A stretch of DNA of 64,000 nucleotides from a virus (taxonomy: Duplodnaviria; Heunggongvirae; Uroviricota; Caudoviricetes). Location: IMG/VR virus record IMGVR_UViG_3300033156_001223, positions 41,842 through 105,841 of that record, one strand, 5' to 3'. Below the pieces are notes generated by a model that did not search any database, was not told the DNA's origin, and worked only from the letters and a program-made list of their open reading frames with translations. The number at the start of each line of letters is the position of its first letter. The stretch's first letter is position 1. The translations under genes and the position numbers were made by a program. Of this stretch, positions 1,168-46,252 are shown one piece after another.

Positions 1168-1177
1168 GACCTCCCTC

Positions 1178-1540
1178 CTAAAACATAATCTTGTCTTTAT
1201 CTTCTTTCTCTTTCTTAATAGACTTACTTTTAAACTTCACCCCCTTCCGAGTAGAACCAATTGGTTTGATTACTAAAGGCTTCGAAGGGGCTACTCTCGA
1301 CAATTTCTCTTTAAGCAGCTCATCAGTCGTACTTACTTTAAGATAAGGAGCTACTAGTTGTTTCAAAGTATTAATATTATGAGGATATGGCTCACAAAGA
1401 GCCCGAAGAGCAAGAACTTCTTCTTGTTTCATCAGATCTTTAACTGCTAATGCCATTAGCCAAGCAAAATCACTATCTGGGACTTTATCCAGCTTCTCAT
1501 ACCAGATCATTGCTGTGTATCGCCCGGAGGGGGTGGACAA
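1178..1540 (-). CDS. hypothetical protein with basic C-terminus (120 aa)
   Basis: ORF in a co-directional gene string. Confidence 0.4.
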   Translation of the reverse strand: MSTPSGRYTAMIWYEKLDKVPDSDFAWLMALAVKDLMKQEEVLALRALCEPYPHNINTLKQLVAPYLKVSTTDELLKEKLSRVAPSKPLVIKPIGSTRKGVKFKSKSIKKEKEDKDKIMF

Positions 1541-2082: not shown

Positions 2083-2095
2083 GACTTACCTCCTT

Positions 2096-2539
2096 TTAGC
2101 CTTTATCCGGTTGCCAAAAATCGGCTCCATAGGCATCCCAATCCTTTCGATATTCATCATTTGGATCATATTCTCTATCTGTAACATTTAATATAACTGC
2201 TTCTTTTTCCAGACTCATAAATCCATGATACACCCCCCTCGGTATGATTAACATTTGGGGGATTCTTTCATCCAAGACTACTTTCTCCAATATGACATCA
2301 CTGCCACTATCGAAGGCCAATCCAACTAATGCTCTCCCTTTTACACATACTAACCTATCCACTTGCTTACGATGGTAATGCCATGCTTTTACTGCTCCTC
2401 TAAATACTGCCGTAACATAGATATTTCCTATTCTCTCTTCACTACTAATAGCTTCACGAATTGGAATAAGATAGCCACGCGAATCTAAATGAAGTTTTAG
2501 TGGCTTCAACCGATAAATACTTTCACTCATCTCAGACAT
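2096..2539 (-). CDS. cupin-fold sugar-nucleotide epimerase/isomerase (RmlC / FdtA-WxcM-like)
   Basis: 147 aa; HYH-containing cupin motif pattern (RGYLIPI...KAWHYHRKQVDRLVCVKGRALVGLAFD) resembling dTDP-sugar 3,5-epimerase/isomerase family. Confidence 0.45.
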   Translation of the reverse strand: MSEMSESIYRLKPLKLHLDSRGYLIPIREAISSEERIGNIYVTAVFRGAVKAWHYHRKQVDRLVCVKGRALVGLAFDSGSDVILEKVVLDERIPQMLIIPRGVYHGFMSLEKEAVILNVTDREYDPNDEYRKDWDAYGADFWQPDKG

Positions 2540-2717
2540 TTCTTACCTCCTACCTTAGCTTACTTTTTTCTGTATTAGCATATTCCTTTCTCAATGTCAA
2601 ATTGTTACTCCTCAAACAAAAAATCTTCCACAGAATCAAGATAGATAAAAATGAGTTGGAATGAGTAAATTTGAGTGAGAAAATCCCTCATAATTCTTTC
2701 CCAAATTCTTCAATTAA

Positions 2718-2739
2718 CTTTTTCGACCTAGGTCAAAAA
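2718..2739. promoter_or_regulatory. near-perfect 22-bp palindrome (TTTTTcGACCT|AGGTCaAAAAA), candidate operator upstream of nrdJ
   Basis: Read directly; core GACCTAGGTC is a perfect palindrome and sits just upstream of the -35 box. Confidence 0.35.
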
Positions 2740-2745
2740 TTTCAC

Positions 2746-2774
2746 TTGACAGTGAGTTTTGACCAAGTAATAAT
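2746..2774 (+). promoter_or_regulatory. sigma70-like promoter (TTGACA-N16-TAATAAT) driving nrdJ
   Basis: TTGACA at 2746-2751, TAATAAT at 2768-2774; AGGAGG SD at 2806-2811 precedes the ATG at 2820. Confidence 0.4.
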
Positions 2775-2819
2775 GAGCAACAGTTTCCTTCTCAAAAATC
2801 CAATTACAAGGAGGACGAA

Positions 2820-10265: not shown

Positions 10266-10647
10266 AAGATTAAACTTAGTTATTATTTTAGCCCTAATTC
10301 TAGTGGCACTATTATGTGTTGCTACTAGTGGTACAGCTGAATATGTCCATAAAACAGTTAATACACAATGGTCAGGTTTAGCAGCTGTGGTGGTGGCAGC
10401 TACTGCTCTTATGACTGCACTAGTTTCCTTAGCAAAAATGGTTAATCACATGAATAATGATCTCATTCATCACTCAATAGAATCTCTAGAAGAAGATTTT
10501 ACTAGAAAGGAAAACGGGTTGCGTCACGAAGAACAACTAAGATCATTAACAGAAACCATGAAGCTTATTGATAGAAGATTGACTAAAATTGAAACTAAAC
10601 TGGATATGATTGAAAAGCACCTGGTGAACTACCCCTCATTGAAATGA
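10216..10647 (+). CDS. membrane-anchored coiled-coil protein (143 aa)
   Basis: Hydrophobic helix LVIILALILVALLCV; C-terminal coiled coil; its 3' end overlaps the tnpB 3' end. Confidence 0.4.
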   Translation: MNSNKRSNNSLQAAVNKRLNLVIILALILVALLCVATSGTAEYVHKTVNTQWSGLAAVVVAATALMTALVSLAKMVNHMNNDLIHHSIESLEEDFTRKENGLRHEEQLRSLTETMKLIDRRLTKIETKLDMIEKHLVNYPSLK

Positions 10648-11950
10648 GGAGTTTCCCGCTTCAACGAGCACTAACGCACTCTCCACGGGCGTAAATTCGG
10701 GCCGTCCCAGCCCTACTACGAACTTCAATCCTTCTTTCAATAAGTTCAAAGCTGCATTGTAATCCCTATCATGCTCCACTCCGCAGTTAGGACATCTCCA
10801 TTTTCTATCAAATAACTTAAGCTCCTCATTTTTATACCCACATACAGAGCAAAGTTTTGAAGAAGGATAAAATGGACGTACTTTGATACACTCTCTACCA
10901 TACATTCTTGCCTTGTAATCTAAATAAGAAACAAATCTCCCCCAACTCACATCTGCTATGTACTTAGCAAGTTCATTACCTTGAATTAGTCGTTTGACAT
11001 TCAGGTCTTCCACTACTATGGCTTGGTTATCGCCGATTATCCTTCTACTTAGTTTATGGAGAAAATCGTTTCTCTGGTTTACTACCTTCTCGTGAAGCTT
11101 TGCCAATTTTCTCTGGAGTTTATGATATTTATTGCTTCCTTTCTGTTTCTTCGATAATCTTCGTTGATGTTTTCTAAGTCTTTCTTCCATTTTCAGCAAA
11201 TATCTTGGATTTTTAACTTTTTCTCCTGCCGACGAAGTACAAAAATGAGTAATTCCTACATCTATAGCTACTGCTTTGTTTGTCTTTGGAAGTGGCTTTA
11301 TCTCTCTATCAACAAGAACATTAAGATAAAATTTCCCTGACGGAAGCTTAGTTATTGATATACTTCTGATTTTTCCTTCTATTTCCCTATGCTTCTTAAA
11401 TTTTATTGATTTCTCAAGTTTTGGTAATTTAATTCTATTTCCTTCTATATGGAAAAATTGCGGTATGGATATACTACCAGCCTCCTTCTTGCTCTTAAAC
11501 TTTGGAAACTTTGCAAATCCTTTGAAAAAATTTTTAAGAGCCATGTCAAGCCTCTTTACCGCCCCCTGAAGTGATTGGCTATTTGCCTCTTTAAGGAATG
11601 GGAACTCTTCTTTAAGTTTTGGAAGCATTTTCTTAGATTCATAATAATTCCACTTTTTGCCTTTTTCTTTATAATCTTCTTTTGCTATCTCCAAAATTTT
11701 ATTATAGACAAATCTACAGTGCCCTATCTGGCGATTTAAAAACCCTATTTGTCCTTTTGTAGGGTAGAGCCTAAATCTATAAGTATAAAGCATTTTTATT
11801 TCCTGCATGGGACATAATACACCACATCCATAAAAAAGCAAATAATAAGCCTTATTTTATAAAAAAAGAATGAAATTTGGGCTAAAAAAGTGAGCGGCCG
11901 CCACCGCCCACTTAGATTTTCTTTAAAATACCCAAACCTCAATTTTCCCG
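10560..11950 (-). mobile_element. putative IS200/IS605-family (IS1341-like, tnpB-only) element; boundaries approximate
   Basis: tnpB without an adjacent tnpA; hairpin CCTCAT-TTCA-ATGAGG overlapping the tnpB stop (about 10639-10658) is a right-end/omega-RNA candidate. Ends not determinable by eye. Confidence 0.35.
10636..11841 (-). CDS. tnpB: TnpB (IS200/IS605 family OrfB, RuvC-like RNA-guided nuclease)
   Basis: 401 aa; canonical OrfB N-terminus (MLYTYRFRLYPTKGQ...FLNRQIGHCRFVYN); C-terminal CxxC...CxxC zinc ribbon (CSVCGY...CPNCGVEHDRDYNAALNL). Confidence 0.85.
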   Translation of the reverse strand: MLFYGCGVLCPMQEIKMLYTYRFRLYPTKGQIGFLNRQIGHCRFVYNKILEIAKEDYKEKGKKWNYYESKKMLPKLKEEFPFLKEANSQSLQGAVKRLDMALKNFFKGFAKFPKFKSKKEAGSISIPQFFHIEGNRIKLPKLEKSIKFKKHREIEGKIRSISITKLPSGKFYLNVLVDREIKPLPKTNKAVAIDVGITHFCTSSAGEKVKNPRYLLKMEERLRKHQRRLSKKQKGSNKYHKLQRKLAKLHEKVVNQRNDFLHKLSRRIIGDNQAIVVEDLNVKRLIQGNELAKYIADVSWGRFVSYLDYKARMYGRECIKVRPFYPSSKLCSVCGYKNEELKLFDRKWRCPNCGVEHDRDYNAALNLLKEGLKFVVGLGRPEFTPVESALVLVEAGNSSFQ

Positions 11951-15224: not shown

Positions 15225-16226
15225 TTAGAGAGAGGAAACAACAGGAACCGCAGTAGTAGCCGGTTGTTTGTGAATATCCTCCCAACTTGGTAAAGCAGCA
15301 GAAGAACCAGAATAGAGCTCAAGTTTAGCGAGTGCATTGTAGTTAGCAACACACATTGCGATAGCTTCGTCCGCAGCCATTTTGATATAGTTACCATGTC
15401 GCTCAATCATGAAATCTACTCCACCAAAAGTGAGGAAGACTCCAAGCATCTGTGAAGGACCGAAGAGATAGATGTTACCAGGCTGGAGTAGATCCTCCTT
15501 GATAGTACGAATCCAGTTGAGTCCGAAGTAGTTTTTACTCACAAAGGCATCAGGACCTTGTGCTCCAGTACTCTCCATGGTTCTGTCATCGAGGTCTGCT
15601 CTCTGCCAGGCACCCATTTCAGCAATATTCTTCTGAGTTATCAGTATAGTTTTACCTACCATCTTCTTAGTAAGAACTTTGAGTAGCAGAACCAGGTCGT
15701 CTTTCTGGAATGCAGAGGTAGCTGCTCCAGTCTCAGTGATGACAGTCCCTTTTACAATATTATTAGGGTTCAGGGCAAGGGCTGCTTCACAAAGAGTCAG
15801 GAAGTACCAATCCTCAGTAGTCTGAAGTCTGATTGCAAAGGATTGCCTGAGGTATTGTTCCACATTGTAAGGGTAGGCAAGAAACTGCCTTTTTTGCCAC
15901 TGTTGCCAATCAGTGCTAATAGTCACAAACGGTACAGCGGCTCTTTTTCCTTCCACAACCTTATATCTTCCCTCACCAAAGAAAGTAAAGACACCCGCTC
16001 CGCTCTCAGGCGGGAAGTCAACGATGAACACGAATTCATCATTATCGAGAGCCCGTTGACAATCAGCAGCCGTTACCGGAGTAGATGGAAGAATTTTACG
16101 AGTAAAACCCTCTTCTTCAATCTGAAGCAGGATCAGCCTGCTGATTTTCGCCTGGGCCTCTTTTACATTATCAGTAGCAAGAGCATTCCAAAAACCCTCT
16201 TTAACTTTGTACTGCTCAACGTACAT
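15225..16226 (-). CDS. putative major capsid protein (HK97-fold candidate)
   Basis: 333 aa; preceded by scaffold-like coiled-coil and decoration-like ORFs; followed by a strong terminator. Fold not verifiable by eye. Confidence 0.45.
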   Translation of the reverse strand: MYVEQYKVKEGFWNALATDNVKEAQAKISRLILLQIEEEGFTRKILPSTPVTAADCQRALDNDEFVFIVDFPPESGAGVFTFFGEGRYKVVEGKRAAVPFVTISTDWQQWQKRQFLAYPYNVEQYLRQSFAIRLQTTEDWYFLTLCEAALALNPNNIVKGTVITETGAATSAFQKDDLVLLLKVLTKKMVGKTILITQKNIAEMGAWQRADLDDRTMESTGAQGPDAFVSKNYFGLNWIRTIKEDLLQPGNIYLFGPSQMLGVFLTFGGVDFMIERHGNYIKMAADEAIAMCVANYNALAKLELYSGSSAALPSWEDIHKQPATTAVPVVSSL

Positions 16227-32475: not shown

Positions 32476-33474
32476 CTAGTATTTTCTCCTCTCCCTATTA
32501 GTTATAACAAAAAACCAGGAGGGGATTTCCAATGGTGGGCTATTATACCACTTGATGGTTTTCTCTATTCCTTCTTCAAGTTTTATTTCTGGAGACCAGC
32601 CAAGTTCTTTTCTTAATTTAGTACTATCCAAAGCGTATCTAAAGTCATGCCCAGGCCTGTCTTCAACCTTCTTTATCTGAAGATTGGGTAGAAATTTTTT
32701 AAGTACTTCAAGCACTTGGTAATTATGATATTCTTCTCCAGAGGATATATTATAGACTTCTCCGATACTACCATGGTAGACAAGTCCTTCTACTGCTCGA
32801 ACCATATCTTCTACATAAATCCACTCTCGCATTTGCTTTCCTTCCCCATATAGAATAGCTGGCTCTCCTTTCAGAGTATTACAAATTGCTTTAGGGATAA
32901 ATTTAGAGGGATGTTGTCTCGGGCCATAGACATTACAAGAGCGGAAGATAATTATAGGGAGTTGGAAAGTGTTATGAAAAGCAAAACAAAGAGCTTCAGC
33001 ACTAGCCTTGCTTGCTGAGTATGGATTCCTGGGTCTAACTACTACTTCTTCTGTCACGGGAGGATCCCCCTCTTTCAGTTCTCCTAACACCTCATCAGTG
33101 CCAGCATAAATAAATCTGTCTATCTTCTCGTATATTTTACATGCTTGGAGCAGATTGAAGTGATCGACGATGTTGAATTTGATGAAGTCGGTTGGTGATT
33201 TGATACTATCATCAACATGAGAAAAAGCTGCAAAATGAACTACATCGGTAATCTGATACTCTTGCAAAATAGCCGGGGAAACCTCACCAGCTAGAATAGG
33301 AAGAAGTCCTACTTTATCTTTATACTCTTGATAGATTTCTTCCCATAATAAATCATTCCATTTGTCAAGAAATCTAAAGTCTACTATTATTACTTCTCTA
33401 TCACTCTCTAATATTCTTCGAACAAAATTTGAGCCAATAAACCCCAACCCACCAGTAACAAGTATCCTTCCCAT
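32476..33474 (-). CDS. rmlB: dTDP-glucose 4,6-dehydratase (NAD-dependent SDR epimerase/dehydratase)
   Basis: N-terminal GGLGFIGSNF Rossmann motif; YSASKASAE catalytic YxxxK; downstream block matches RmlB (NVYGPRQHPSKFIPK...ILYGEGKQMREWIYVED). Confidence 0.7.
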   Translation of the reverse strand: MGRILVTGGLGFIGSNFVRRILESDREVIIVDFRFLDKWNDLLWEEIYQEYKDKVGLLPILAGEVSPAILQEYQITDVVHFAAFSHVDDSIKSPTDFIKFNIVDHFNLLQACKIYEKIDRFIYAGTDEVLGELKEGDPPVTEEVVVRPRNPYSASKASAEALCFAFHNTFQLPIIIFRSCNVYGPRQHPSKFIPKAICNTLKGEPAILYGEGKQMREWIYVEDMVRAVEGLVYHGSIGEVYNISSGEEYHNYQVLEVLKKFLPNLQIKKVEDRPGHDFRYALDSTKLRKELGWSPEIKLEEGIEKTIKWYNSPPLEIPSWFFVITNRERRKY

Positions 33475-34660: not shown

Positions 34661-35325
34661 TCCTCCCCCTCCTCAATCAGTTTCGCATTCTCTAAATCCT
34701 GCCAACCACGGCTGCCATCTGGTCTTGTAAGATGATCACAGACTACTCCGCAATGGACATAACTCTTATAACCCAACTCTGCAGCATCGTGGTGGAATAC
34801 CGCATCCGGAAAAGCTTCAGTATGTCTAAATTCAACTTTTTCAACTACTTCTCTTTTAATCAAACATACTCCTAGAGTACCTTTTGGAGTACACTCTTTA
34901 ATTACATCTCCTGCTATCCACCATTCGGGTGGATGGAAATCGAAATCCGTGTAGTAGAGGCCTTCTATAATGGGCTTATCTGCCTCAATTAATTTTTTAA
35001 GAGTATATGGAGGCAGTATCACATCACATTCAACACTAAACAAATAATCATAATCTCCTTCAAGACAAATTTCTCTTGCCAAATTACAAGCAGCGGCTAA
35101 TCTACGATGCACCAGATACTCATCTGGGGTCTGATCTATTTTGATAACTTGTTTAATCCATCCCTCTGGTATAGGAAATTCCCAATATTTTGGAGTAGTA
35201 GATATTACTACTCTGGTAAGGAAATTTTTAGGAAAATCCAATCGTTGTATGGCCCTGAAGAAGAGAGGAATCGAATAAGATTTTATTGGGTGAACGGGAC
35301 TAAATAAAAGTACTCTACCAAACAT
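34657..35325 (-). CDS. putative GT-A fold glycosyltransferase
   Basis: NLAREICLEGDYDYLFSVECDVIL resembles the GT2 DxD-region pattern; weak. Confidence 0.35.
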   Translation of the reverse strand: MFGRVLLFSPVHPIKSYSIPLFFRAIQRLDFPKNFLTRVVISTTPKYWEFPIPEGWIKQVIKIDQTPDEYLVHRRLAAACNLAREICLEGDYDYLFSVECDVILPPYTLKKLIEADKPIIEGLYYTDFDFHPPEWWIAGDVIKECTPKGTLGVCLIKREVVEKVEFRHTEAFPDAVFHHDAAELGYKSYVHCGVVCDHLTRPDGSRGWQDLENAKLIEEGEE

Positions 35326-35336
35326 ACCCTCCTCCT

Positions 35337-35891
35337 TTAGTTAAGCTCCCTATCATCTCCTACGAAAATATCATAGAAAGTACAATATTTCCCTAAATTA
35401 CCTCCCCCAATATCAAGCGGTTTAGGAGTATCACCTTCAAGTTCCCACCCAAATCCATCAATCTCTTTAGTCTTAAAATTAACACACTGAACCCAAACTA
35501 CATCAACAGGGTCAAAAAACTCTTTTATCTGATGATAATACATTCCAATCTGTTCTTCTTGTATACTTGGAATTCCTACTTTCCGCATCTCACCCATTGT
35601 TATACACCCTAGATAATCAATATTACTTCTGCGGCAGAACTCTTTCACGGATAAGAAATTAGGTATTTTGTCTTCTCTAGAAAACTCCAATGGAACGACA
35701 AAGTATAAAGTTCCAGGGGAATAGCAAAAAAAGCTCATAGGATCCATGTCAATTTCGTTAACTGTTTCGAAATATTTTGTAATAAAATTTTTAATGAAGC
35801 TACAGAAATCTTGAAAAGAATTGATATCATTTTCTTCAAATTCCAACACCTTCATGTGAATCTGTTTCATCTTTCTCCTCCTCCCATTCAA
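35337..35891 (-). CDS. hypothetical protein (184 aa)
   Basis: ORF. Confidence 0.4.
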   Translation of the reverse strand: MNGRRRKMKQIHMKVLEFEENDINSFQDFCSFIKNFITKYFETVNEIDMDPMSFFCYSPGTLYFVVPLEFSREDKIPNFLSVKEFCRRSNIDYLGCITMGEMRKVGIPSIQEEQIGMYYHQIKEFFDPVDVVWVQCVNFKTKEIDGFGWELEGDTPKPLDIGGGNLGKYCTFYDIFVGDDRELN

Positions 35892-35944
35892 TAATCCCTT
35901 CTGCTACTTGTCGTAATTCTTTTTTCTTCTCCCTTCTTTCTCTT

Positions 35945-36367
35945 CTATCTCTCATTATCTTCGTTGGTGGTGCTGTCGGTTTCCTCACTTGGCAGTATAG
36001 GGGCTTCCTTTTCTTTTTCATTGAGATATTTCCTCCCAATTATTCTATTTATCTCTCTATTTAATCCAAGCATATTGAGTATTGCAGGGACCTTATCAAT
36101 AATAGTTCTCTGAAAATTGACTACTTGTAAAAGAGCTTTGTTAATATAATCGAACCCATTACAATACCATCCCTCAGGAAACTTCTGGCAGACTATTCCA
36201 GCATCTGGGTAGATTCTCAAGAGTACATATGGTTGATTAATAAAAAATACATCTTGTTGTTGATATGGAAATTCTTTGAAAACAAATAGAGACACTCCAA
36301 AACCAATAACTGCTCCCAAAAATCCTGATAAGATATGCCTCCCTATTTTCAAATCTTTCCAATTCAT
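35945..36367 (-). CDS. hypothetical protein with N-terminal TM helix (140 aa)
   Basis: ILSGFLGAVIGFGVSLFVF. Confidence 0.35.
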   Translation of the reverse strand: MNWKDLKIGRHILSGFLGAVIGFGVSLFVFKEFPYQQQDVFFINQPYVLLRIYPDAGIVCQKFPEGWYCNGFDYINKALLQVVNFQRTIIDKVPAILNMLGLNREINRIIGRKYLNEKEKEAPILPSEETDSTTNEDNER

Positions 36368-36382
36368 CTTCTCCCTCCAAAC

Positions 36383-36781
36383 TTAGTGATGATGAGTATC
36401 TCTTATTATGCTTACCAACTCTGCAATATTTTCATTGAGTTTTCTAAACTCCTCCACAATTTCTTTTTTGCTCTCCCAGCTTCTTGACCTACTAAAATGT
36501 CTACATATAAATTCCATTACCTTGTCATTGCGTGGTCTAAGACCACGATTGCTGAATATTTTATCTAGACACTCGTAGCATAACCAAATATACTCTCTCT
36601 TTCCTCCTTCTCTACTAATGGTGCAATCTGTTAGCTTATCCTCTTCTTCACAACCACATTGTTCACATCTCTTCTTTTGTAACTGCTTTGGTTGCTTTTT
36701 TGATTTTCTTGTCCCACATCTACAAAATAACATATCTGACCTCCTATTTTTACTAATGGGTGCCCAGCTTTTGCCAGGCAC
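36383..36781 (-). CDS. Cys-rich zinc-binding protein (132 aa)
   Basis: CRCG...CEQCGCEEE...CYEC. Confidence 0.4.
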   Translation of the reverse strand: MPGKSWAPISKNRRSDMLFCRCGTRKSKKQPKQLQKKRCEQCGCEEEDKLTDCTISREGGKREYIWLCYECLDKIFSNRGLRPRNDKVMEFICRHFSRSRSWESKKEIVEEFRKLNENIAELVSIIRDTHHH

Positions 36782-36834
36782 CCTCTCCTGGGGAGATCCC
36801 CACTGCCGGATAGAGTGGAAGACAGGGACATAAT

Positions 36835-37425
36835 TTATTTCTTTTGTAAAAATAAAAGAGATCGAGTTCTATGATTAGTAGATTGTTGTACTGCAACAAT
36901 TCCACGATATTGAAATTCTGCGTTTCTCCATTGAGGGACAATAGTGTCTAACCACAGAAGCCACCCTCCCGGTCTTAACACTCTATAACACTCCTCAAAT
37001 GTCTTCCTTTTCTTTATTGGCTTAGTTCCATACTTCTTATAATTCTTCTCATATGGTGGGTCAGCTAATATTAAATCGAAGCTATTAGATTCTAGAGGAA
37101 TCTCCTTTGAATCGGCAATAATATCTGGTTGTAACTCCGGATTTATATCTAAAGTAAAGATATTTTCTCCGTTTCCCTTTAAAGTTCCTGAAAACAAGTG
37201 TAGGACCAACCCCTCTTTGAAAATTGGATGCATAACTGCTTCTACTCTTCGTAAGAATCCTGGTGGGTAAGCTCCATAAAAATAAGGAGCTCCATCAGCA
37301 CGAGTTTGGTTATACCATCTACCAAACCACCAATAGCCAACAACATTATTCTTATGGAGCAAAACCGGTGACCATCCTTTCTTCTGAGCTATACTGTTAT
37401 AATACTCAACGTTTAAGTCAAACAT
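36835..37425 (-). CDS. putative amino-methyltransferase with DPPY motif (N6A/N4C DNA MTase or RsmD-like)
   Basis: Motif I-like LHLFSGTL followed by FDLILADPPYE (motif IV DPPY). Confidence 0.5.
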   Translation of the reverse strand: MFDLNVEYYNSIAQKKGWSPVLLHKNNVVGYWWFGRWYNQTRADGAPYFYGAYPPGFLRRVEAVMHPIFKEGLVLHLFSGTLKGNGENIFTLDINPELQPDIIADSKEIPLESNSFDLILADPPYEKNYKKYGTKPIKKRKTFEECYRVLRPGGWLLWLDTIVPQWRNAEFQYRGIVAVQQSTNHRTRSLLFLQKK

Positions 37426-37466
37426 TCTTACCTCCTTACCTACTAATCTTATCTAAAAATCCTCTT

Positions 37467-37658
37467 TCAATCAACTAAAAAGTGGAGTGGAGGGTGATTG
37501 CTATCCACTTCACTTTTATCTCCCTTCTTCTTTCCATACTTATAAAATAGATTCTCCAATTGCTTTTGTTGGGGAGGAGATATTGGGCCAAACCCAATTT
37601 TAATTAAATTATTAAAATCCCCCTCCTTAAATCTGATTGTCTTCTTTTTCCTACCCAT
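37467..37658 (-). CDS. small basic protein (63 aa)
   Basis: ORF. Confidence 0.3.
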   Translation of the reverse strand: MGRKKKTIRFKEGDFNNLIKIGFGPISPPQQKQLENLFYKYGKKKGDKSEVDSNHPPLHFLVD

Positions 37659-37718
37659 TTTATCCTCCTCTCTGGAATATTTAATAATTAAAAAGGGAGG
37701 GTGGCTGCCGAGCCATTT

Positions 37719-38075
37719 TTATGTTTTGGCAAAAGCTCGGCAGCCGATTATCTTTCCTTCCTCATCACGGACTGTTTCATCCACGATGAGGAAGTCTTCT
37801 CGCGGTAATCGTGCTGCAACTACCGCGGATACAATGAAATATATTCCCTCAGAGGGGGGAGGCAATTCTATTCCCTCTGGGGAATACTTGACCCTGTTGA
37901 TGGGGAGCCCTGGGGCGAGCTCTCCGATTTTTTCACGATGTTCCCGCAGCCGCAGTGGTTCTATAGCTGCGGGAATGGTAATCTCCCCCCCTCCATCAGG
38001 GTGGAGATTCACAGGATGCGGAGTAGTATTATACAATACCACCCCATTTATCACCACTTTTCCGAATTTTTCCAT
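37719..38075 (-). CDS. hypothetical protein (118 aa)
   Basis: ORF; 11-bp-stem hairpin overlaps its 3' end. Confidence 0.4.
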   Translation of the reverse strand: MEKFGKVVINGVVLYNTTPHPVNLHPDGGGEITIPAAIEPLRLREHREKIGELAPGLPINRVKYSPEGIELPPPSEGIYFIVSAVVAARLPREDFLIVDETVRDEEGKIIGCRAFAKT

Positions 38076-38094
38076 TTTCCTCCCTCCTTATTCA

Positions 38095-38280
38095 TCATTC
38101 ATCTCCAAGCTCCTCGATCAATTGATCGAGGTAGCTTTTTCTTGGTGGTATAAATTCCACTACATATGGGGGATTTTTTCTTTTACCCTCCTGCCATTCC
38201 AGTTCAGCCTCAGCCAGATGGCCGAGGCCGTAAAATTCCAGTTCATCCCTGATCCTCTCAAGCTTTTCCTTTCTTCGCAT
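38095..38280 (-). CDS. small protein (61 aa)
   Basis: SD AGAGGAGG upstream; conserved 20-nt motif just upstream. Confidence 0.4.
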   Translation of the reverse strand: MRRKEKLERIRDELEFYGLGHLAEAELEWQEGKRKNPPYVVEFIPPRKSYLDQLIEELGDE

Positions 38281-38335
38281 TCTGCACCTCCTCTCTTTAC
38301 CCTCCCTATTAGTTATAACAAATATATTTATATAT

Positions 38336-38776
38336 TTATAATTTATTAATAAGAAAAAATCTTGTGATTAGTCCTTGATCATCTAACTCTGCAACAATTC
38401 TCACATTCTTACTGGTAGTAAATACATGATTAATAATATCTAATGCAGTTATTTCTTCCTGATGCCCATTATCCCGAAATAACAACCCTCTCAAAGAATC
38501 ATTACATCTTACTGGTTTGATCAACGCTTTACTAACTGCTTCTCGATCCTTCACCAACATATTTTCAAGACCATATACTACATCCTCTACAGTAACTTCT
38601 TGATAATAACCAAGTTCTATTAAATCATCTACATAGAGTTCCGCCCCACAACTTACACACTTAGCTGAAAACTCTCCAGCTCCAGCATCACGCCAACGAA
38701 CTCCATCAAATCTCTTCATACCAATATCTGTAAAAGAAATATACTCTATCTTTTCGTGACAGTAAGGACACTTCAT
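38336..38776 (-). CDS. zinc-ribbon protein (146 aa)
   Basis: CPYCHEK...CVSCG; AGGAGG SD. Confidence 0.4.
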   Translation of the reverse strand: MKCPYCHEKIEYISFTDIGMKRFDGVRWRDAGAGEFSAKCVSCGAELYVDDLIELGYYQEVTVEDVVYGLENMLVKDREAVSKALIKPVRCNDSLRGLLFRDNGHQEEITALDIINHVFTTSKNVRIVAELDDQGLITRFFLINKL

Positions 38777-38821
38777 CTTCTCCTCCTTAGTTTGGTTCTA
38801 GACCTATGAAGTTATAACATA

Positions 38822-40894
38822 TTATGCTGCTACTCTTTCTAGCTCTTGTTGAGTAGGAAACTCAATATGTTGCAACAGAATCTCTACGTCTGGAATGTCA
38901 GGAATTCTCATTCCTGTTGCCAGGGCGGGTATTGGATTGGGACCAGTAGGCCAACTAGCTCCTCCTTTAGCAGCAGTATCAATGATGGTAGTTTTTAATT
39001 TCTCAAAATTGAGTCTCGCTAGAATATCCTCTATCGTATCCAATGGAAGAGTATTCACCCCTCTTAGCACTGGCTCATACTTAACTGGATCTGGTTTAAC
39101 CTCGATAACCGGAAATTTCTGAATCTTTTCAAACACTTTTTCATCAATTAAAGTGCCTGCCGATACCCCACCAATCGATTTTGCTAGTCTCATACCAATT
39201 GCTAGTTTAGGGGGTAGAGATATCTTTTTACTTACTTTTTTATTGAAATGTTCTAAGTAGCTAATCGGAGCATAATCTCCCTCTACATAATAAGGATGAC
39301 TACCCCGGTCTATTACTTTGGCAGTATTAGTTAATGCCTTAACTAGCACTTCTAAGTTCTTCCTCGACACTGTAGCTTCTTCGCTCAGAGTTTTGTCCAG
39401 CTCCTCTACTAATTTGTCTTGGGTATCTTCGATTCCCCTCAATTTGAGAAATTTAATGGGATTAAAAATACCAGAAGAAATAGCATCTCCTCGAGTAACA
39501 CTTTGTCCTCTTTTTACTATTACCTCTCTATCTGCAGGTACCCAGTGCTCTCTCTTATTGATGATAACTCTATGACCTCCCAACTCTGGATCCGGAATAA
39601 CGGCTTCTACTCTTCCGTGAACTTCAGCTAAAATAACCTCATTAGGAATATTCTCTGGGAATTCCAGGAGAACTGATAGCTTTTTGAATGGGCCGATATC
39701 CCCAGTACCGACGTGCCATCTATTAAGAGCTAATTGAGTAGTAGGTTCTCCTACTGCATGAGCCGCTTTCACTCCTACAAAATCTCCTTTCGGATGATCC
39801 TGTCCGGTCACATCTCTACCGAGGCATTTCTGACATACTCCGTGAACTGCCTCACATCTAAGAGGACTCCTTACCACTAACTCTCTTATATATTTGCGTG
39901 CATAACTGAGCAGTTCTGGAGTAACCAAAGTATTATGAGCAAATTTCTTGCCACCAATTTTTTGGCTCCCAGCCAGGTATCTACCAACAATGTTGGGGTC
40001 ATCCACTGACATCTTAATGCCACGAGTAGTACCACAGTCTGTTTCGGTTACTCTTAGATCAAGAACTGAATTCATAACTAATTTAGTTAACCTTCCCGGT
40101 TCACTAACCTCTTTAACCTTTGCTAAAGCTCCGGCACGAGAACCATACATACTAGTTAAATATTCCGGAATATCTAGCCCCTGAGCATACCCTTCTATGA
40201 TTGGAAATTCTATATAATCCCCCTGTAAGTCCTGAACCGCATTACCGAGTAGCATTTGCCTTAAGTGAGATGTTCCTCCACGTGAGCCCGATTCAACCAT
40301 AAGCCTGAAAGCATTGTTCTCTGGAAGCTTTTCTACTAGCTTATTTAATTTATTCAACATATTCTTCATAATTTTATTAGTTTGCTGTTTGGTCTCAGCC
40401 TTCCTCAAAGCATTCATTGCCTCAAACACAATTTTATCTCTTTGTTTTTGAATATTTTTTGGAACAGATAAATCATCAAGACCAAAACTGAAACCAGAGA
40501 AATAAGCTGCATTAAGCCCCACTTCTTTGAGTTTATCTAACAACACTGAATAATCTTTTGGTCTTTCCTTGGCTATCTTTGCTAGGTAATTTCTAAGTAC
40601 TTTTGCGGTTATTGGCTTAGTAAAAAGATGTTTGTCTGGGAGAAAAGATTGGATGAAAAGCCTCCCTGGAGTTGTAGTAGTCCTCCCTACTTTAACAACA
40701 TCATCTACATTGAGCTTTCCACTTTCCCAAGCCTTTAATACTTCACTAACAGATTTAAATTGTTTATTAGTTTTCTTTCCTTCTTTGGTAAGTAAATATA
40801 GTCCTAACACAATATCTTGGCGTGGTGCCCACATTACTTTGGATGTAGAAACGGACCATAGTATCCCAAACAATAACTCCATTTTTAAGAACAA
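38822..40894 (-). CDS. rpoC: RNA polymerase beta' subunit, C-terminal portion (continuation of the rpoBC fusion in another frame)
   Basis: APRQDIVLGLYLLT matches bacterial beta' PSQDVVLGLYYMT; PGRLFIQSFLP and YFSGFSFGLDDLSVP match downstream beta' blocks. Frame is open only from 40915 after TGA at 40916-40918; the listed TTG start is an artefact. Confidence 0.8.
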   Translation of the reverse strand: MFLKMELLFGILWSVSTSKVMWAPRQDIVLGLYLLTKEGKKTNKQFKSVSEVLKAWESGKLNVDDVVKVGRTTTTPGRLFIQSFLPDKHLFTKPITAKVLRNYLAKIAKERPKDYSVLLDKLKEVGLNAAYFSGFSFGLDDLSVPKNIQKQRDKIVFEAMNALRKAETKQQTNKIMKNMLNKLNKLVEKLPENNAFRLMVESGSRGGTSHLRQMLLGNAVQDLQGDYIEFPIIEGYAQGLDIPEYLTSMYGSRAGALAKVKEVSEPGRLTKLVMNSVLDLRVTETDCGTTRGIKMSVDDPNIVGRYLAGSQKIGGKKFAHNTLVTPELLSYARKYIRELVVRSPLRCEAVHGVCQKCLGRDVTGQDHPKGDFVGVKAAHAVGEPTTQLALNRWHVGTGDIGPFKKLSVLLEFPENIPNEVILAEVHGRVEAVIPDPELGGHRVIINKREHWVPADREVIVKRGQSVTRGDAISSGIFNPIKFLKLRGIEDTQDKLVEELDKTLSEEATVSRKNLEVLVKALTNTAKVIDRGSHPYYVEGDYAPISYLEHFNKKVSKKISLPPKLAIGMRLAKSIGGVSAGTLIDEKVFEKIQKFPVIEVKPDPVKYEPVLRGVNTLPLDTIEDILARLNFEKLKTTIIDTAAKGGASWPTGPNPIPALATGMRIPDIPDVEILLQHIEFPTQQELERVAA

Positions 40895-43800
40895 AAGTAG
40901 GAGCCTGGGGGATGGTCAAATCATAGACTGTCTTTCTCCCAATCGGTTTTACCGAAATAACCCGCTTCCAGGAAATCATATCATTCTCTATTAACTCTTT
41001 CCATCTCTGGTATAGAGGGTCATCACTATTTATTTTTTCAATAATTCCCATAGCAAAGTCTCTAGACATCCTATTACTACTATATCGTGGGTAAACAATG
41101 GATCTCAACTTCTTTGGTAATGGAATAATATCTCTTTTAGTAAATTTAGTAGGTAACTCTTTTAATCTCTTTTGTTTGTGATTATGCAAATAAATTTGAT
41201 CTTTCTTAGTCATAATATCTACTGAATTCAAATATGCTCTGTAATAATTTCTTTGCTGCCCTTTATAAGTATATTTGCTATTACTAATTACTGATCTGAC
41301 TCCCAAACTCATTGCTAACATCGATATCTCATAGGCCAGTCTTTCGCTAGTAGTAGAAATATATACCTCTTTACCCTTTTTAGAAATGGTGCCATCTCCT
41401 GCAAGAAGCCCAGAAAGAAGCCCCAATCTAAATTCATATGGAGTAGATAGAAAAAACGTGGGGAGATGCTTGTTGTTAGCTCCTTCTCCAAATAGCACTG
41501 GGAATTCTCCAGCTAGTTTGGTTGAATAGATACGCACAAAATCACTTCTACCTGTTGGGAATTTCCGTATTACTGCTCCTCCTGTTTTATTTAGTTTTTC
41601 CCTACAAATCTTCAGTAAGTATTCTTTCATTTCATCACTAATTGTAGAAATCCTTATTTGGGTATTCCCCTTTTTCCACCCCGTGCAACATCCTTCAGCA
41701 CAATACATTCCAAAAAGAAAACCAAGATCATAATCTAAATCAACCTCTTTTCCATCCATTTCAATTTTCGTAATTTTTTCCTCAGCGGGAATATTTCTTA
41801 ATACTGGTAAATACATACCAACAGATTCTTTAGGAGTTACTCTCTTTAGTTCCAATGTCTCTGGATCAAGACAAAGCAAAGAATGGTCGTTCGAGACTAT
41901 CAAAGTCTTTCCTGATTCAGCAACAACTTCATAACAAGGAACATTTTTATGAACTGAGTAGCTGTAAGGATTTACCCATTTAAGCTCCAAAGCCTTTGGA
42001 TCCATAGCAAGTACTTTAAGATTTTCCTTTACTCTAAATTCTTTAATCTTCCCAGTATCCTTAACTTTTTCATCCTTCGGGAAGTCCTTCAAGTCAGTGA
42101 GATGCACCTCATCGTCATTAAGATAGAATATTTCACCCAATACACTATCACCATCAAAATCAGCATTGAATCCAGCTGTTACTAATGGGTGAATGTGGAT
42201 TACTTTATCTCGAACTATTCTAGGATAGAAAGCCATCACTCCATATTTATGGAGTACCGGATCCCTTTTTAAATAGACTGGTCTATTAGCCATCTCCCTC
42301 TCAAGTGCCCTTCTAGCTGCTTCCTCCTTATTCTCAACTACTAATCTAGCCCTAGCCGGACTATATCCAGCTTCCACCAATTTTCTCACTACAATTGGTT
42401 CAAAGATTTTCCAGGCCATGTCCTCTGGTATACCAACTTCATCTAAATGGAGTGATGGATCAGGGACAATCACACCTCGAGAAGAAAGATCTTGTCTTCT
42501 TTTGAGTAGAGCACTTTGAAAGTAACCAAGTTTTGGGCTTGGTCCAATAATAATATCCATCACAGACTTAAGCTTACGATTTATGCCGACCTCGAGTCCA
42601 TCAAGCTCCAAAGCTTTAACCGCATCATACAATTTAGCATATACTTTCCCATACTCCGCTTCAGGAAACTCTTTTCTAGCTATAGGTATCTGATTGTTGA
42701 CCATAGCAATATTTCTATATAAACCATTAATATCATGGACAGATATTCCCCCTTGTTTAAGCTGAACTAGAGGTCTGAAGAAAGAAGGAATGACAACTAT
42801 GTTTTTTCTAAGAAATATTTCTTCTGGTTTCTTATTTAATTTAATTATATTCCTCAAAATCTTAATTTTTCTGGCTAATACTGATTTTCTCTGGTCGTTA
42901 GCAGTTTTAATTTCCTGGGTGGCCTTAGCCAACTCTTTCTTTGGATCCAGTCTTCGTAAAAGCATTCTGAAAGCATCCCCAAATTTGTATTTACCATCTG
43001 GAGTAATTTTTCCAGTACTATCTACTCCGAGTTTCCCAGAAACTATATCTTTAAAAGTAGCAGAATTTATCTCCAATAGAATGCATAATGCTCGTTCAAA
43101 TATAGGATTTGGAACTACCTCATTAAGAGGAATGTGGTTATATTTAGTGCCGAAGAACCCTCCAGTAAGTCTTGGGTCAAATAATCCCCCCTCCTCAGCT
43201 ACTGGGTTTCCTTTTTTCATTCTGATAATTTTAGTTGCATCTATTTCCCCATTCGAGAGCTTAAGAATATCTTCATCAAATAGAGGAACAAATTGGAGAA
43301 CGTTTCCGAGCTTCTCTACATTAATCCCCAAGGCCCGAAGGTAAGATTCAAATTTCTGGTAAGTTAGAGGAGTTTTAGGTCTGGGTATTGGTAGGCCTGA
43401 TTGGAAAGCATACCAGAAATCTGGATTATAGTCACTTTTGTAGGTTTGTGCTTCATAAAGGTTTGCTTTTGCTCCGTGAGCCAACATTGCATATAAACCA
43501 AGATGCCCCAATGACTGAGCACCACCTTCAGATGATCCAAGAGGCAACGCATCATAACTATACTTTTCTCCTGCCCCGGCTCCTCGGGCATGTAGTTTAG
43601 GTTCCGCCCGATGTTTTAATTTCATAATATATTGTGGTCCTATGAAGACATCCGGTATGGGTTTTCCAGTCTTCGGATCAACCAAATCTTCTTTATCTGG
43701 AATTTTCAATCTCTTCAATTCATCCCTGATTTTGGAATAATAGTTCCCCATAAAATTTTCTACTGGGTAAGGCTTTCCGGTCTTCTCTGCTATTTTTCCA

Positions 43801-46214
43801 GCTAAAGTTTCCAACACCTGCCCCATATTCATACGAGAAATTACTCCAAGAGGATTCAAAACCACATCTATGATTTTACCATCCTTAGTTCTAGGCATTT
43901 CCGAATCAGGAATGATTGCTCCAATTACTCCTTTGTTTCCGTGCCTATTAGCCAGTTTATCTCCAACTTGTGCCGGCTCGGTGGTACGAATATAAACCTT
44001 AACGAATTTTGGTCTTTTGACTACCTTAACGACCTTACCGGGTGAGGAACGATTCCAAGTTATAGATCTATCTCTTTCAGGTATAGCTAGTTTTTTAGAA
44101 AACTTGGCAAGCAAGAATTGATCAGGAGTGGGCAGTTCTTTGTGGATTACCAAGATAATTGGGTCTCCTTCTTCGACCATCTGCCCAACCTTAACTACTC
44201 CGTCATCATCTAATTTATTAAGCTGATCTTTAGTAAATAGAGTAGAGGGGAATAGAGAAATATATCTCTTTTTATTTAAAGTAGTATCCTTGTCGACATA
44301 TTGGGAAAATTCATATAAATGCTCACTAGTAAGTTTCTTAGCAGCAGACTCCGAAATAACAATAGCATCATCAATATTATGTCCTTTGAAAGGCATATAA
44401 GCTACTAGGAGATTCTTACCAAAGGCAAATCTTCCTTCTTTAGTGTAATTAGTATCAAACAACAAATCCCCTTTTTTTACTTTCTGTCCTTCTTTAACCA
44501 GTGGTTCACTATCCAAAAAACCATCTTGTAAAGGATAATCCTTTGGCATAGATATCTTGTGAGTCTTTCCGGACTTATCTTTAACGTAAATATACTCAGA
44601 AGTAACCTTTGAAACGGTTCCATTAACCGGCGATTTATTGAAGAAGATGCCCATACTATCCAGTAGCTCCTCAGAGATTGGTGTTCCATTTATGACTGGG
44701 AAAACTAATGGATATTCTCTCTCTTTCAAAGGCAATGCCTGCTCCAATTGTTTTACTGCCATAAGGACTCTATTTCCGGAATCATAGTTGAGAAATGGCA
44801 CTAATGAAGTTAGGTGACTAAAAAAATCTAGTGGGTGTAGAGTAAAATAATCTATCTTGTCTTTATTCACAAAACCAAATTTCCCTTTACGTAAAGCCAT
44901 CCACCTATTACCCTTTACTGGTTTGATACCGATTACTGAGTTATATACTTGTTCTGGAGTAAGAAATTCTCTTCTTCCTCTTTTATCTTTTAAAATAACT
45001 ACTGGTTTTCCATCTTTATTAAATCCAGAAACTGCTGATGCCAAGTGAAGAGTTGTTCCAATCTTAATATTGTCTGGAGTATGCACCGGATCTAAAAAAA
45101 GAAAAGTACTGGGATTAATCATTCTCTGCTTATCTGTAACCCGGTGGATGTCTCCGATTCCACCCTCCCCCATAATAGTAACTTTGTTGACTGCACTCAT
45201 AGCAGAGATTGGTCCAGTAAAAGATTCAACATTAGATATTTGGCTGTTTGTAAAGAATGAGCGAACGGCAGGGGTAAAAAAACTACTTAAGCCTAAATCA
45301 GCTATTTTTTTGCGCTTGTCAACCGTATTCTTTAATCTATTCTTCAAAATTACCATTTTTCTTAATCTTTCTCCAAGAATCTCCGATGGGGTCACTATTT
45401 GCTTAAATAAGAGTGAATCTCTATCATCCTCCTTTCCTCCTCGAAGTATTTCAATTAATCTCTCAAGAGACCTAATTAAAGTATCAACGTCCACTTTCTC
45501 GTATTTCTTTCCTAAAGTAGCTTCTGTAACTTCCGGAGTAAGGGTAGTAGAATCCAATAGTTTCTTAAACTCTTCAGCTGGGTTGGGGGGTGCTTTCTCG
45601 TATCCCAAAGCCCTAAATAACTTATTGTAATTTAATGTTTTTTTGTAATTAATAGCATAAATCTTATCTCCAACAATATTCCTTAACTTTTCCTCTCCTA
45701 CTCCCAAGGATAATAGCAACGGGATTAGGGGGATGTGGACAGTGCCATACTCGAGTAGAATAGTAAAGTCTTTTGGATTAAGAATTAGCTTAATACCTCT
45801 TCCTTTTAGATTGATTTGATTAAAATTTGCTTGGATGGTATTATCTGCCTTCTTTTCATGATACACACCTGGCAACAATCTCATCTGAGTAGGAATATGA
45901 TATTCAGAACCACCAACTAAAAAAGTAAAGCGAGGGGTTAAGATTGGGATTCTTCCAATCAACACTCTTTTCTGATCCAAAACCTTACCATCTTTCGTCT
46001 TTAATACTGCTGTAGCATAAACAGGGATGTCCCAAGTTCTATCCTGCCATCGGTATTCTCGTTGGATATTGTAGTCGTGGAGATCTTTGTCAAACTTTGC
46101 CTCTAAATCTTTTATCTCCAAACGATGATTCTTCCCCTCAACAGGGAAAAAATCCTTGATTGATTCTAAGACGGAACTGACATACTTACGGATACTGGCT
46201 TCAAACTGAGTCAT
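40767..46214 (-). CDS. rpoBC: RNA polymerase beta-beta' fusion (rpoB fused to the N-terminal part of rpoC), carrying an intein after NADFDGD
   Basis: 1815 aa; beta motif NRHGNKGVIGAIIPDSEMP...DVVLNPLGVISRMNMGQVLETLAG; beta' N-terminal GGLFDPRL; catalytic NADFDGD at 42147-42167; Hint/LAGLIDADG region follows. Confidence 0.85.
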   Translation of the reverse strand: MTQFEASIRKYVSSVLESIKDFFPVEGKNHRLEIKDLEAKFDKDLHDYNIQREYRWQDRTWDIPVYATAVLKTKDGKVLDQKRVLIGRIPILTPRFTFLVGGSEYHIPTQMRLLPGVYHEKKADNTIQANFNQINLKGRGIKLILNPKDFTILLEYGTVHIPLIPLLLSLGVGEEKLRNIVGDKIYAINYKKTLNYNKLFRALGYEKAPPNPAEEFKKLLDSTTLTPEVTEATLGKKYEKVDVDTLIRSLERLIEILRGGKEDDRDSLLFKQIVTPSEILGERLRKMVILKNRLKNTVDKRKKIADLGLSSFFTPAVRSFFTNSQISNVESFTGPISAMSAVNKVTIMGEGGIGDIHRVTDKQRMINPSTFLFLDPVHTPDNIKIGTTLHLASAVSGFNKDGKPVVILKDKRGRREFLTPEQVYNSVIGIKPVKGNRWMALRKGKFGFVNKDKIDYFTLHPLDFFSHLTSLVPFLNYDSGNRVLMAVKQLEQALPLKEREYPLVFPVINGTPISEELLDSMGIFFNKSPVNGTVSKVTSEYIYVKDKSGKTHKISMPKDYPLQDGFLDSEPLVKEGQKVKKGDLLFDTNYTKEGRFAFGKNLLVAYMPFKGHNIDDAIVISESAAKKLTSEHLYEFSQYVDKDTTLNKKRYISLFPSTLFTKDQLNKLDDDGVVKVGQMVEEGDPIILVIHKELPTPDQFLLAKFSKKLAIPERDRSITWNRSSPGKVVKVVKRPKFVKVYIRTTEPAQVGDKLANRHGNKGVIGAIIPDSEMPRTKDGKIIDVVLNPLGVISRMNMGQVLETLAGKIAEKTGKPYPVENFMGNYYSKIRDELKRLKIPDKEDLVDPKTGKPIPDVFIGPQYIMKLKHRAEPKLHARGAGAGEKYSYDALPLGSSEGGAQSLGHLGLYAMLAHGAKANLYEAQTYKSDYNPDFWYAFQSGLPIPRPKTPLTYQKFESYLRALGINVEKLGNVLQFVPLFDEDILKLSNGEIDATKIIRMKKGNPVAEEGGLFDPRLTGGFFGTKYNHIPLNEVVPNPIFERALCILLEINSATFKDIVSGKLGVDSTGKITPDGKYKFGDAFRMLLRRLDPKKELAKATQEIKTANDQRKSVLARKIKILRNIIKLNKKPEEIFLRKNIVVIPSFFRPLVQLKQGGISVHDINGLYRNIAMVNNQIPIARKEFPEAEYGKVYAKLYDAVKALELDGLEVGINRKLKSVMDIIIGPSPKLGYFQSALLKRRQDLSSRGVIVPDPSLHLDEVGIPEDMAWKIFEPIVVRKLVEAGYSPARARLVVENKEEAARRALEREMANRPVYLKRDPVLHKYGVMAFYPRIVRDKVIHIHPLVTAGFNADFDGDSVLGEIFYLNDDEVHLTDLKDFPKDEKVKDTGKIKEFRVKENLKVLAMDPKALELKWVNPYSYSVHKNVPCYEVVAESGKTLIVSNDHSLLCLDPETLELKRVTPKESVGMYLPVLRNIPAEEKITKIEMDGKEVDLDYDLGFLFGMYCAEGCCTGWKKGNTQIRISTISDEMKEYLLKICREKLNKTGGAVIRKFPTGRSDFVRIYSTKLAGEFPVLFGEGANNKHLPTFFLSTPYEFRLGLLSGLLAGDGTISKKGKEVYISTTSERLAYEISMLAMSLGVRSVISNSKYTYKGQQRNYYRAYLNSVDIMTKKDQIYLHNHKQKRLKELPTKFTKRDIIPLPKKLRSIVYPRYSSNRMSRDFAMGIIEKINSDDPLYQRWKELIENDMISWKRVISVKPIGRKTVYDLTIPQAPTFVLKNGVIVWDTMVRFYIQSNVGTTPRYCVRTIFTYQRRKEN
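40863..42146 (-). other. intein (Hint domain with double-motif LAGLIDADG homing endonuclease), 428 aa
   Basis: Starts with Ser directly after DFDGD (SVLGEIFYL); block B ESGKTLIVSNDHSLLC; LAGLIDADG motifs LFGMYCAEG and LLAGDGT; block F/G VYDLTIPQAPTFVLKNGVIVWD then +1 Thr. Confidence 0.7.
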
Positions 46215-46222
46215 TGTAAGTT

Positions 46223-46228
46223 ATTATA
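46223..46228 (-). promoter_or_regulatory. TATAAT -10 box 8 nt upstream of the rpoBC ATG (possible leaderless start)
   Basis: Minus strand ...tttgcTATAATaacttacaATG; no SD between. Confidence 0.3.
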
Positions 46229-46252
46229 GCAAAGGTTTCATTTCTAAGCATC

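Follow-up and report, generated by a model that had tools for sequence, protein, structure and literature searches.

A tailed-phage gene for a fused bacterial-type RNA polymerase, with an intein at its catalytic site and a frame-breaking deletion beside it

Why should a phage genome carry a bacterial-type RNA polymerase in two overlapping open reading frames (ORFs), the first running from the beta subunit into beta-prime and the second holding the rest of beta-prime? This question is raised by a 64,000-nt stretch of viral DNA (IMG/VR record IMGVR_UViG_3300033156_001223, positions 41,842 to 105,841), hereafter called the window, in whose numbering all positions are given. The two frames, ORF1 (40767..46214) and ORF2 (38822..40894), both lie on the minus strand and overlap by 128 nt, with ORF2 in the +1 frame relative to ORF1; their products, of 1,815 and 662 aa, are both recorded in cluster records for a 142,619-nt contig of the Joint Genome Institute (JGI). 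A preliminary description, made from the sequence alone, read the pair as a beta/beta-prime fusion completed by an adjacent gene. Our analysis indicates, with a probability of roughly 85%, that they are parts of one tailed-phage gene encoding a single-chain bacterial-type RNA polymerase core, with an intein at the catalytic site, broken here by a 71-nt deletion.

Both ORFs could be mapped onto RpoB- and RpoC-type domains with Pfam and with solved polymerase chains, and most of the initial assignments were borne out. All the beta motifs quoted for ORF1 are present (HGNKGV at aa 758, LNPLGV at 786, SRMN at 793 and GQVLE at 798), and Pfam itself reports two domains for the beta module, Rpb2_3 and Rpb2_6, the latter at aa 531-881 (PF00562, E-value 3.3e-70). 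Solved bacterial beta chains align with aa 14-985 with E-values down to 5e-94, and the cyanobacterial beta chain 8syi_C does so in a single stretch (its residues 32-1053 against aa 14-965, E-value 9e-93), which shows homology throughout the subunit, from the N-terminal lobe and protrusion to the clamp part at the C-terminus. The proposal that the N-terminal 1,100 residues or so are RpoB-like is therefore correct in kind but too generous in length, as direct reading places the joint between beta and beta-prime at about aa 971/972 (...LGINVEKLGN / VLQFVPLFDEDI...).

Beyond this joint the same polypeptide continues into the N-terminus of beta-prime, as had been proposed, with GGLFDPRL at aa 1009 and NADFDGD at aa 1350-1356. 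The NADFDGD loop falls inside an Rpb1_2 match (PF00623, E-value 1.7e-21), and aa 1075-1356 are aligned by solved beta-prime or gamma chains; the Rpb1_1 match is partial and lies under the Pfam cut-off (37.9 vs 39.7 bits). Bacterial beta-prime has an N-terminal Cys4 zinc-binding element, which the window protein lacks: the 120 aa past the joint contain one Cys. The remaining beta-prime was recovered in ORF2, where it had been predicted: this frame contains the motif PRQDIVLGLYLLT, matches Rpb1_3 (PF04983), Rpb1_4 (PF05000) and Rpb1_5 (PF04998), and is aligned by solved beta-prime chains with an E-value of 6e-48. Its C-terminal part has a ratio of nonsynonymous to synonymous substitution rates (dN/dS) of 0.027 against the related loci L006 and L007 (82% nucleotide and 92% amino acid identity), which shows that the beta-prime part in this frame is under purifying selection.

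What failed in the earlier reading is the idea of a subunit boundary between ORF1 and ORF2. In its place we find an intein at NADFDGD/T (the slash marks the junction) and, just beyond it, a frame-breaking deletion of 71 nt. The parts of the gene are laid out as follows:

43302..46214, minus strand: beta (RpoB-like) module, aa 1-971, ending ...LGINVEKLGN (Pfam, solved beta chains, motifs)
42147..43301, minus strand: beta-prime N-terminal module, the end of the N-extein, aa 972-1356, ending NADFDGD (Pfam, solved beta-prime and gamma chains)
40863..42146, minus strand: 428-aa intein carrying a homing endonuclease of the LAGLIDADG type (Pfam, PI-PkoII match, same-site inteins in relatives)
40857..40862, minus strand: first two C-extein codons, Thr(+1)-Met (relatives read D/TM... 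here)
38822..40855, minus strand: remaining beta-prime (C-extein), read in the ORF2 frame from SVSTSKVMWAPRQD... as far as the stop (Pfam, solved beta-prime chains, dN/dS)

The 428 residues of ORF1 that directly follow NADFDGD (aa 1357-1784) are not beta-prime; they form an intein with a LAGLIDADG endonuclease. They match the Pfam families Intein_splicing (PF14890, E-value 2.2e-11), LAGLIDADG_3 (PF14528, E-value 8.5e-15) and Hom_end, and their best solved match is PI-PkoII (E-value 6e-9). The expected landmarks can be read one after another: an N-terminal Ser1 (SVLGE...), a block B with SNDH (...LIVSNDHSLL), in which Ser replaces the Thr of TxxH, two LAGLIDADG motifs (LGFLFGMYCAEG and LLSGLLAGDG) with both catalytic acidic residues intact, and a block F reading VYDLTIPQ. 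Block G reads NGVIVWD/T, which means that the intein ends in Trp-Asp rather than in the canonical His-Asn, with Thr as the +1 residue. The corresponding intein-free target sequence is GATTTTGATGGTGAT / ACTATGGCAGTATTT.

The insertion site is precisely defined by relatives. Sixty-four homologues run contiguously through DFDGD-xM without an insert, and at least 12 proteins and 5 IMG/VR loci carry inserts of 356-512 aa at exactly this DFDGD site. Inteins with a C-terminal Asp are known, and the [WF]D/T ending recurs in the contiguous relatives P0016, P0025, P0046, P0049, P0061 and P0001. Because the same ending is found in relatives with intact ORFs, Trp-Asp is probably a working variant. No description of an intein at NADFDGD was found in the literature searched.

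Some relatives vary at the same point. In P0001, P0025, P0046, P0049, P0118 and L016, Asn rather than the third catalytic Asp precedes the intein (DFDGN/C..., DYDGN/T...), and at the five readable 3' junctions (P0001, P0025, P0046, P0049 and window-type relatives) the intein ends in Asp, as [WF]D/TM. Splicing of the DFDGN inteins as written would yield DFDGN-TM, with Asn in place of the third Mg-binding Asp. The enzymes may tolerate this Asn, the residue may be converted, or the chemistry of the junction may be unusual. Four further proteins, P0095 and P0096 (1,371 and 1,373 aa), P0105 and P0113, end in or just past the NADFDGD codons, for instance in ...GFNADYSNSPAA followed by a stop. These early ends could be due to further mobile elements at this hot spot (introns or free-standing endonuclease genes, for example), or the contigs themselves may end there.

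The boundary between ORF1 and ORF2 is a lesion two codons past the intein, and the 71-nt loss, which shifts the frame, is the sole reason why the gene reads as two ORFs; no other stop or frameshift occurs in about 6 kb of coding sequence. The 64 intein-free homologues share, past the Asp triad, the consensus DFDGD-xM-xxx-VP-xxxx-A-xx-EA-xx-M-x-PS-x-NLF-S...P.Q(D/E)..LG. In a profile of this region, positions 1-16 match the ORF1 frame and positions 40-76 the ORF2 frame, and positions 17-39 have no match in any of the six frames of the window, where a profile of that segment only also returned nothing. The conserved segment xMxxHVPxxxxAxxEAxxLMxSxxN is thus interrupted in the window, and these searches rule out that the 24 missing residues are located elsewhere in it. 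Pairwise searches with P0002 and P0003 likewise left 22-23 of their residues unmatched and detected no second RNA polymerase copy in the window. The missing stretch, which in established RNA polymerase structures makes up the strand and helix just past the Mg-binding loop of the beta-prime double-psi beta-barrel, includes six columns that are invariant among ten diverse family members. At the DNA level the junction reads GAT ACT ATG G/TCC GTT: the last intein codon, Thr-Met, a stray base and then SVSTSKVMWAPRQD in the +1 frame.

The missing bases are present in JGI contig Ga0366835_1032696 (6,962 nt; L093), which was reached via a 146-aa protein encoded just downstream. Its global alignment with window positions 35041..41992 (6.95 kb) contains no substitutions and exactly two indels, a deletion of 71 nt in the window and one of 61 nt in L093, which flank a single 36-nt core consisting of block G and the splice junction. 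The features involved are these:

40855..40856, minus strand: deletion point, where 71 nt are absent that L093 holds at 1077-1147, encoding AVFTPLTNDAVKEMQKMLPSSNLF (L093 alignment, profile gap)
40767..40856, minus strand: out-of-frame ORF1 tail VRFYIQSNVG...KEN, ending at a stop, without beta-prime homology (frame reading, profile)
40893..40953, minus strand: 61 nt encoding intein block F (VKPIGRKTVYDLTIPQAPT), present in the window and deleted in L093 (L093 alignment)

When the window and L093 are merged, a single ORF of 2,487 aa results, comprising the 428-aa intein and a spliced product of 2,059 aa; the reading frame through beta-prime, not contiguous in the window, becomes contiguous once the L093 bases are added. 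From the residues lost, we infer that the allele as sequenced is non-functional and would yield no active beta-prime. Two origins of the lesion, a defective variant that arose very recently and an error of assembly or sequencing, have roughly even odds, and under either of them the functional gene of the phage population is the contiguous form.

Taken together, these features suggest how the intact gene would work. A beta module of about 971 aa is fused head to tail with a trimmed beta-prime of about 1,088 aa that has no zinc element, and the whole would be translated as a 2,487-aa precursor, inactive since 428 residues interrupt its catalytic loop. Excision of the intein through Ser1, the C-terminal Asp and Thr+1 would ligate the loop as DFDGD-TM and release the 2,059-aa active enzyme; as the intein sits at the Mg-binding Asp triad, the polymerase would be active only after splicing. 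The released LAGLIDADG endonuclease could, in turn, spread the intein by homing into alleles without one when phages co-infect.

The restored protein has numerous relatives. The preliminary description had considered a near-bacterial fused enzyme unusual in a phage, an expectation overturned by more than 100 fused metagenomic homologues (about 2,010-2,170 aa, collinear over 98% of their length, 31-39% identity) and by at least 502 IMG/VR viral contigs, up to 210 kb long, that encode relatives. Many longer members, mostly of 2,385-2,575 aa, carry intein or LAGLIDADG domains, and the restored sizes of the window gene with and without its intein fit these two ranges. The nearest homologue, P0001, is 53% identical and has an intein at the same site. 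Among 80 IMG/VR loci that were fetched, about 62 are contiguous fused genes, 5 have an insert at DFDGD, 10 are naturally split and 3 are without a recognisable DFDGD. Megablast detected no close relatives in cultured phages, and tblastn gave at most 28% identity; no biochemical characterisation of the fused family was found in the literature searched. The window gene is a further member of this abundant, uncharacterised family of fused phage polymerases.

The 113-kb contig of P0002 (L012) encodes a GpA-type terminase and another intein-containing gene; its ResIII-type helicase gene (1111..3429) has an intein splicing domain. In this phage group, inteins thus seem to be frequent in essential genes.

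Several points weigh against our interpretation. The intact allele was not found as any single sequence: both assemblies of this genotype are broken, differently (71 nt here, 61 nt in L093) and 36 nt apart, and two differing deletions are not expected if the intact form dominates. The assemblies alone cannot separate a real variant from an artefact. Additional sequence did not help, as a protein search with the restored junction returned only the ORF of L093 itself, neither the deleted junction nor the 36-nt core had an exact match in IMG/VR, and L006 and L007 begin inside ORF2 and so stop short of the junction. The sole evidence for splicing with Trp-Asp in place of His-Asn is its conservation in intact relatives. 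Finally, the sigma-like accessory genes that the preliminary description suggested looking for did not emerge, since Pfam matched no sigma, alpha or omega homologue in the 30 other window ORFs scanned.

Of the alternative explanations, the one that survives best accepts both deletions as real and recurrent, and attributes them to a process at the 3' junction of the intein, either imprecise resolution of homing or endonuclease damage at a pseudo-site, with defective alleles circulating while intact genomes complement them. We consider this account unlikely, though it merits attention. It would explain why 6.95 kb without substitutions nevertheless contain 61-nt and 71-nt deletions flanking the same 36-nt core, with no further indel in the remaining 6.8 kb. 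The end of the intein also resembles the end of the N-extein, matching it at 10 of the last 15 nt and at 16 of 30; the 3' junction thus partly mimics the homing site. The catalytic acidic residues of both LAGLIDADG motifs are intact. However, both variants retain the junction itself, unlike what end-joining after a cut there would leave, no microhomology or hairpin occurs at the deletion ends, and dead alleles of a gene with a dN/dS of 0.03 should not dominate assemblies. An artefact of assembly at a heterogeneous locus is about as likely as a real junction-specific process.

Three specific routes to the deletions were rejected. A microhomology deletion between two CTATGG copies is contradicted by L093, which shows the ancestral AAT CTT TTT, and neither deletion has microhomology. 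Hairpin-driven slippage does not fit the DNA fold of the restored 248-nt region, which leaves the deletion ends apart. Self-cleavage by the endonuclease at the 3' junction would have a partly mimicked site available (10 of 15 nt), yet both variants keep the junction intact.

A natural two-subunit enzyme, in which ORF1 and ORF2 are translated separately and assemble like the cyanobacterial gamma and beta-prime subunits or a phiKZ-type split polymerase, is very improbable. Splits of beta-prime are tolerated, and a naturally split subfamily does exist, represented by 10 of the 80 IMG/VR loci (L060, L062, L064, L067, L069, L071, L073, L083, L087 and L091) and by proteins P0098-P0104. In that subfamily, however, the ORF for beta and the beta-prime N-terminus stops 85-90 aa (about 88 aa) past DFDGD and retains the conserved segment, whereas the window gene breaks 2 aa past the intein and has lost 23-24 residues of that segment. 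No break of the window type occurs among the approximately 200 family members examined, and in L093 the missing codons are present and read on in frame into the remaining beta-prime. Independent translation of ORF2 was rejected as well: about 80% of the genes in this genome have a Shine-Dalgarno motif, and none precedes any candidate start of ORF2.

Programmed recoding, by which a +1 frameshift or a translational bypass in the 128-nt overlap would join ORF1 to ORF2, can draw on the overlap and on the +1 position of ORF2, but it is scarcely credible: the 24 conserved residues would be missing from a frameshift product too, no relative requires recoding here, and L093 reads contiguously. Equally remote is a cellular origin of the region, be it from a bacterial operon (rpoBC) or from the degraded remains of a prophage; the motifs look bacterial and some distant relatives lie on contigs binned into Desulfobacterales metagenome-assembled genomes, but the closest homologues are fused proteins of 2,000-2,100 aa encoded on viral contigs that also have terminase genes, identity to bacterial fused beta/beta-prime proteins is only 28-31%, and the window itself has the character of a phage.

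Our reading of a single fused phage gene agrees with this context, in which the preliminary description had correctly recognised a phage. Coding density in the window is 96%, with nearly all genes on one strand. Structural genes encode a tail sheath, a head protease-like protein and a head-protein candidate (15225..16226, a weak PHROG match); the window further encodes a family-A DNA polymerase, a primase, a DnaB helicase, a UvsX-like recombinase, an exonuclease and RNase HII. Ribonucleotide reductase, a TnpB-like transposase and a DNA methyltransferase are also encoded, and no tRNAs, group I introns or Rfam families were detected in the window. The source is a tailed phage with a contractile tail, on a contig of at least 142 kb.

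The signals around the polymerase gene differ from those of its neighbours. A Shine-Dalgarno-like motif precedes 43 of the 52 window genes, in many cases a perfect AGGAGG or GGAGG in a genome of 38% G+C, which suggests that the anti-Shine-Dalgarno sequence of the host is canonical; a survey of the window found none before ORF1. Instead, the following element was identified:

46223..46231, minus strand: extended -10-like element TGCTATAAT, 8 nt upstream of the ORF1 ATG and preceded by a hairpin (motif reading)

The locus of the closest homologue (L001, 1690..1728) has the same layout, with a hairpin, TGTTATAAT, 6 nt and an ATG, and no Shine-Dalgarno motif. Because ORF1 has no Shine-Dalgarno motif, TGCTATAAT lies 8 nt before its ATG and the layout is shared with L001, the sequence suggests that the ORF1 message may be transcribed by the host, early and nearly leaderless. 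Elements of the form TGYTAYRAT occur in coding orientation in short intergenic gaps at 46215..46252, 6647, 12348, 26475 and 28499, and five of the nine matches in the window fall within the approximately 4% of sequence that is intergenic.

Other parts of the window show signs of mobility and exchange. Between the tail and head gene blocks, a 401-aa ORF (10636..11841, minus strand) matches the PHROG transposase family phrog_506 with an E-value of 1e-130 and is probably a TnpB/IS605-type element. Compared with L006 and L007, which are about 80% identical elsewhere, positions 36263..37497 constitute an extra 1.2 kb with the DNA methyltransferase gene (36835..37425) and a 132-aa ORF; the adjoining 340 nt (37497..37836), with a gene end, a terminator-like hairpin and a 63-aa ORF, are 93-95% identical in the window, L006 and L007. 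The region 36263..37836 looks like a recently exchanged mosaic segment. Two sugar-nucleotide genes were also noted, one with an FdtA/WxcM-like isomerase or dTDP-sugar epimerase fold (2096..2539, minus strand) and one for a nucleotide-sugar epimerase (32476..33474, minus strand); an epimerase gene is likewise found downstream of the polymerase gene in L001 (12218..13189).

These findings delineate a large, experimentally untouched group of phage single-chain RNA polymerases of bacterial type. Such enzymes measure about 2,060 aa, lack the zinc element and have no recognisable genes for alpha, omega or sigma in their vicinity, and they could serve as minimal models for the catalytic core of bacterial polymerase. 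Within the family, inteins of several types recur at the Mg-binding Asp triad, a hot spot for their insertion. The restored 2,059-aa sequence is the one to use in annotation and phylogenies, since the apparent subunit boundary in the window reflects a lesion or an error. If the deletions are real and recurrent, they would reveal a junction-specific mutational process tied to intein homing or to the endonuclease, creating defective RNA polymerase alleles that complementation maintains in natural phage populations; the deletions seen in this pair of otherwise identical assemblies may equally be an artefact.

Comparison with known systems places the enzyme among other phage and cellular polymerases. 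The enzymes of phiKZ and AR9 are likewise phage-encoded members of the two-barrel RNA polymerase superfamily, and in these jumbo phages beta and beta-prime are highly divergent, each being distributed over at least two polypeptides (PMC7598289, PMC7824862); only split enzymes appear in reviews of jumbo-phage polymerases. The window enzyme, by contrast, is fused and readily aligned to bacterial enzymes (E-value 5e-94). The contrast with the split phiKZ-like enzymes drawn in the preliminary description thus stands, but phiKZ-like polymerases are not the closest relatives.

Cellular fusions of the Helicobacter and Wolbachia type also join beta and beta-prime head to tail in one polypeptide. Those compared here (P0114-P0120) measure about 2,880 aa, carry the full bacterial domain set (Rpb2_1, Rpb2_2, Rpb2_45, Rpb2_7 and others) and are 28-31% identical to the window enzyme, which has 2,059 aa, no beta-prime zinc element and an intein.

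Multimeric-RNAP-encoding Caudovirales (mReC) encode bacterial-like beta and beta-prime subunits (Weinheimer & Aylward 2020, PMC7481178). The window resembles them in having a phage polymerase detectable with COG0085 and COG0086, an NADxDGD motif and tailed-phage hallmark genes, on contigs that reach about 300 kb in mReC. The mReC entries checked list separate neighbouring proteins, with beta of 1,002-1,521 aa and beta-prime of 891-1,303 aa; these listed proteins, each of at least 800 aa and matching COG0085 or COG0086, are an arrangement that the fused window gene does not share. Identity with the published mReC contigs was considered and rejected: some samples are shared, but the contigs differ and the mReC genes are split. 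A fused arrangement has been reported for RNAP1 of rep_vMAG_21, which is one phage gene, and a single viral gene for beta and beta-prime roots at the base of the mReC clade (Hwang et al. 2023, PMC10159854).

The intein resembles PI-PkoII and PI-SceI in that a Hint domain is interrupted by a two-motif LAGLIDADG endonuclease and the whole lies in a highly conserved catalytic motif of an essential enzyme. It differs in its host protein, a phage RNA polymerase in which it occupies the Mg-binding Asp triad, and in ending with Trp-Asp instead of His-Asn. The fused enzymes of uncultivated phages (such as P0001-P0094, annotated in JGI/IMG as "RNA polymerase beta subunit/beta' subunit") share with the window gene the direct joint between beta and a short beta-prime as well as the phage context; among the fused family members examined, the 71-nt deletion is the feature that sets the window gene apart.

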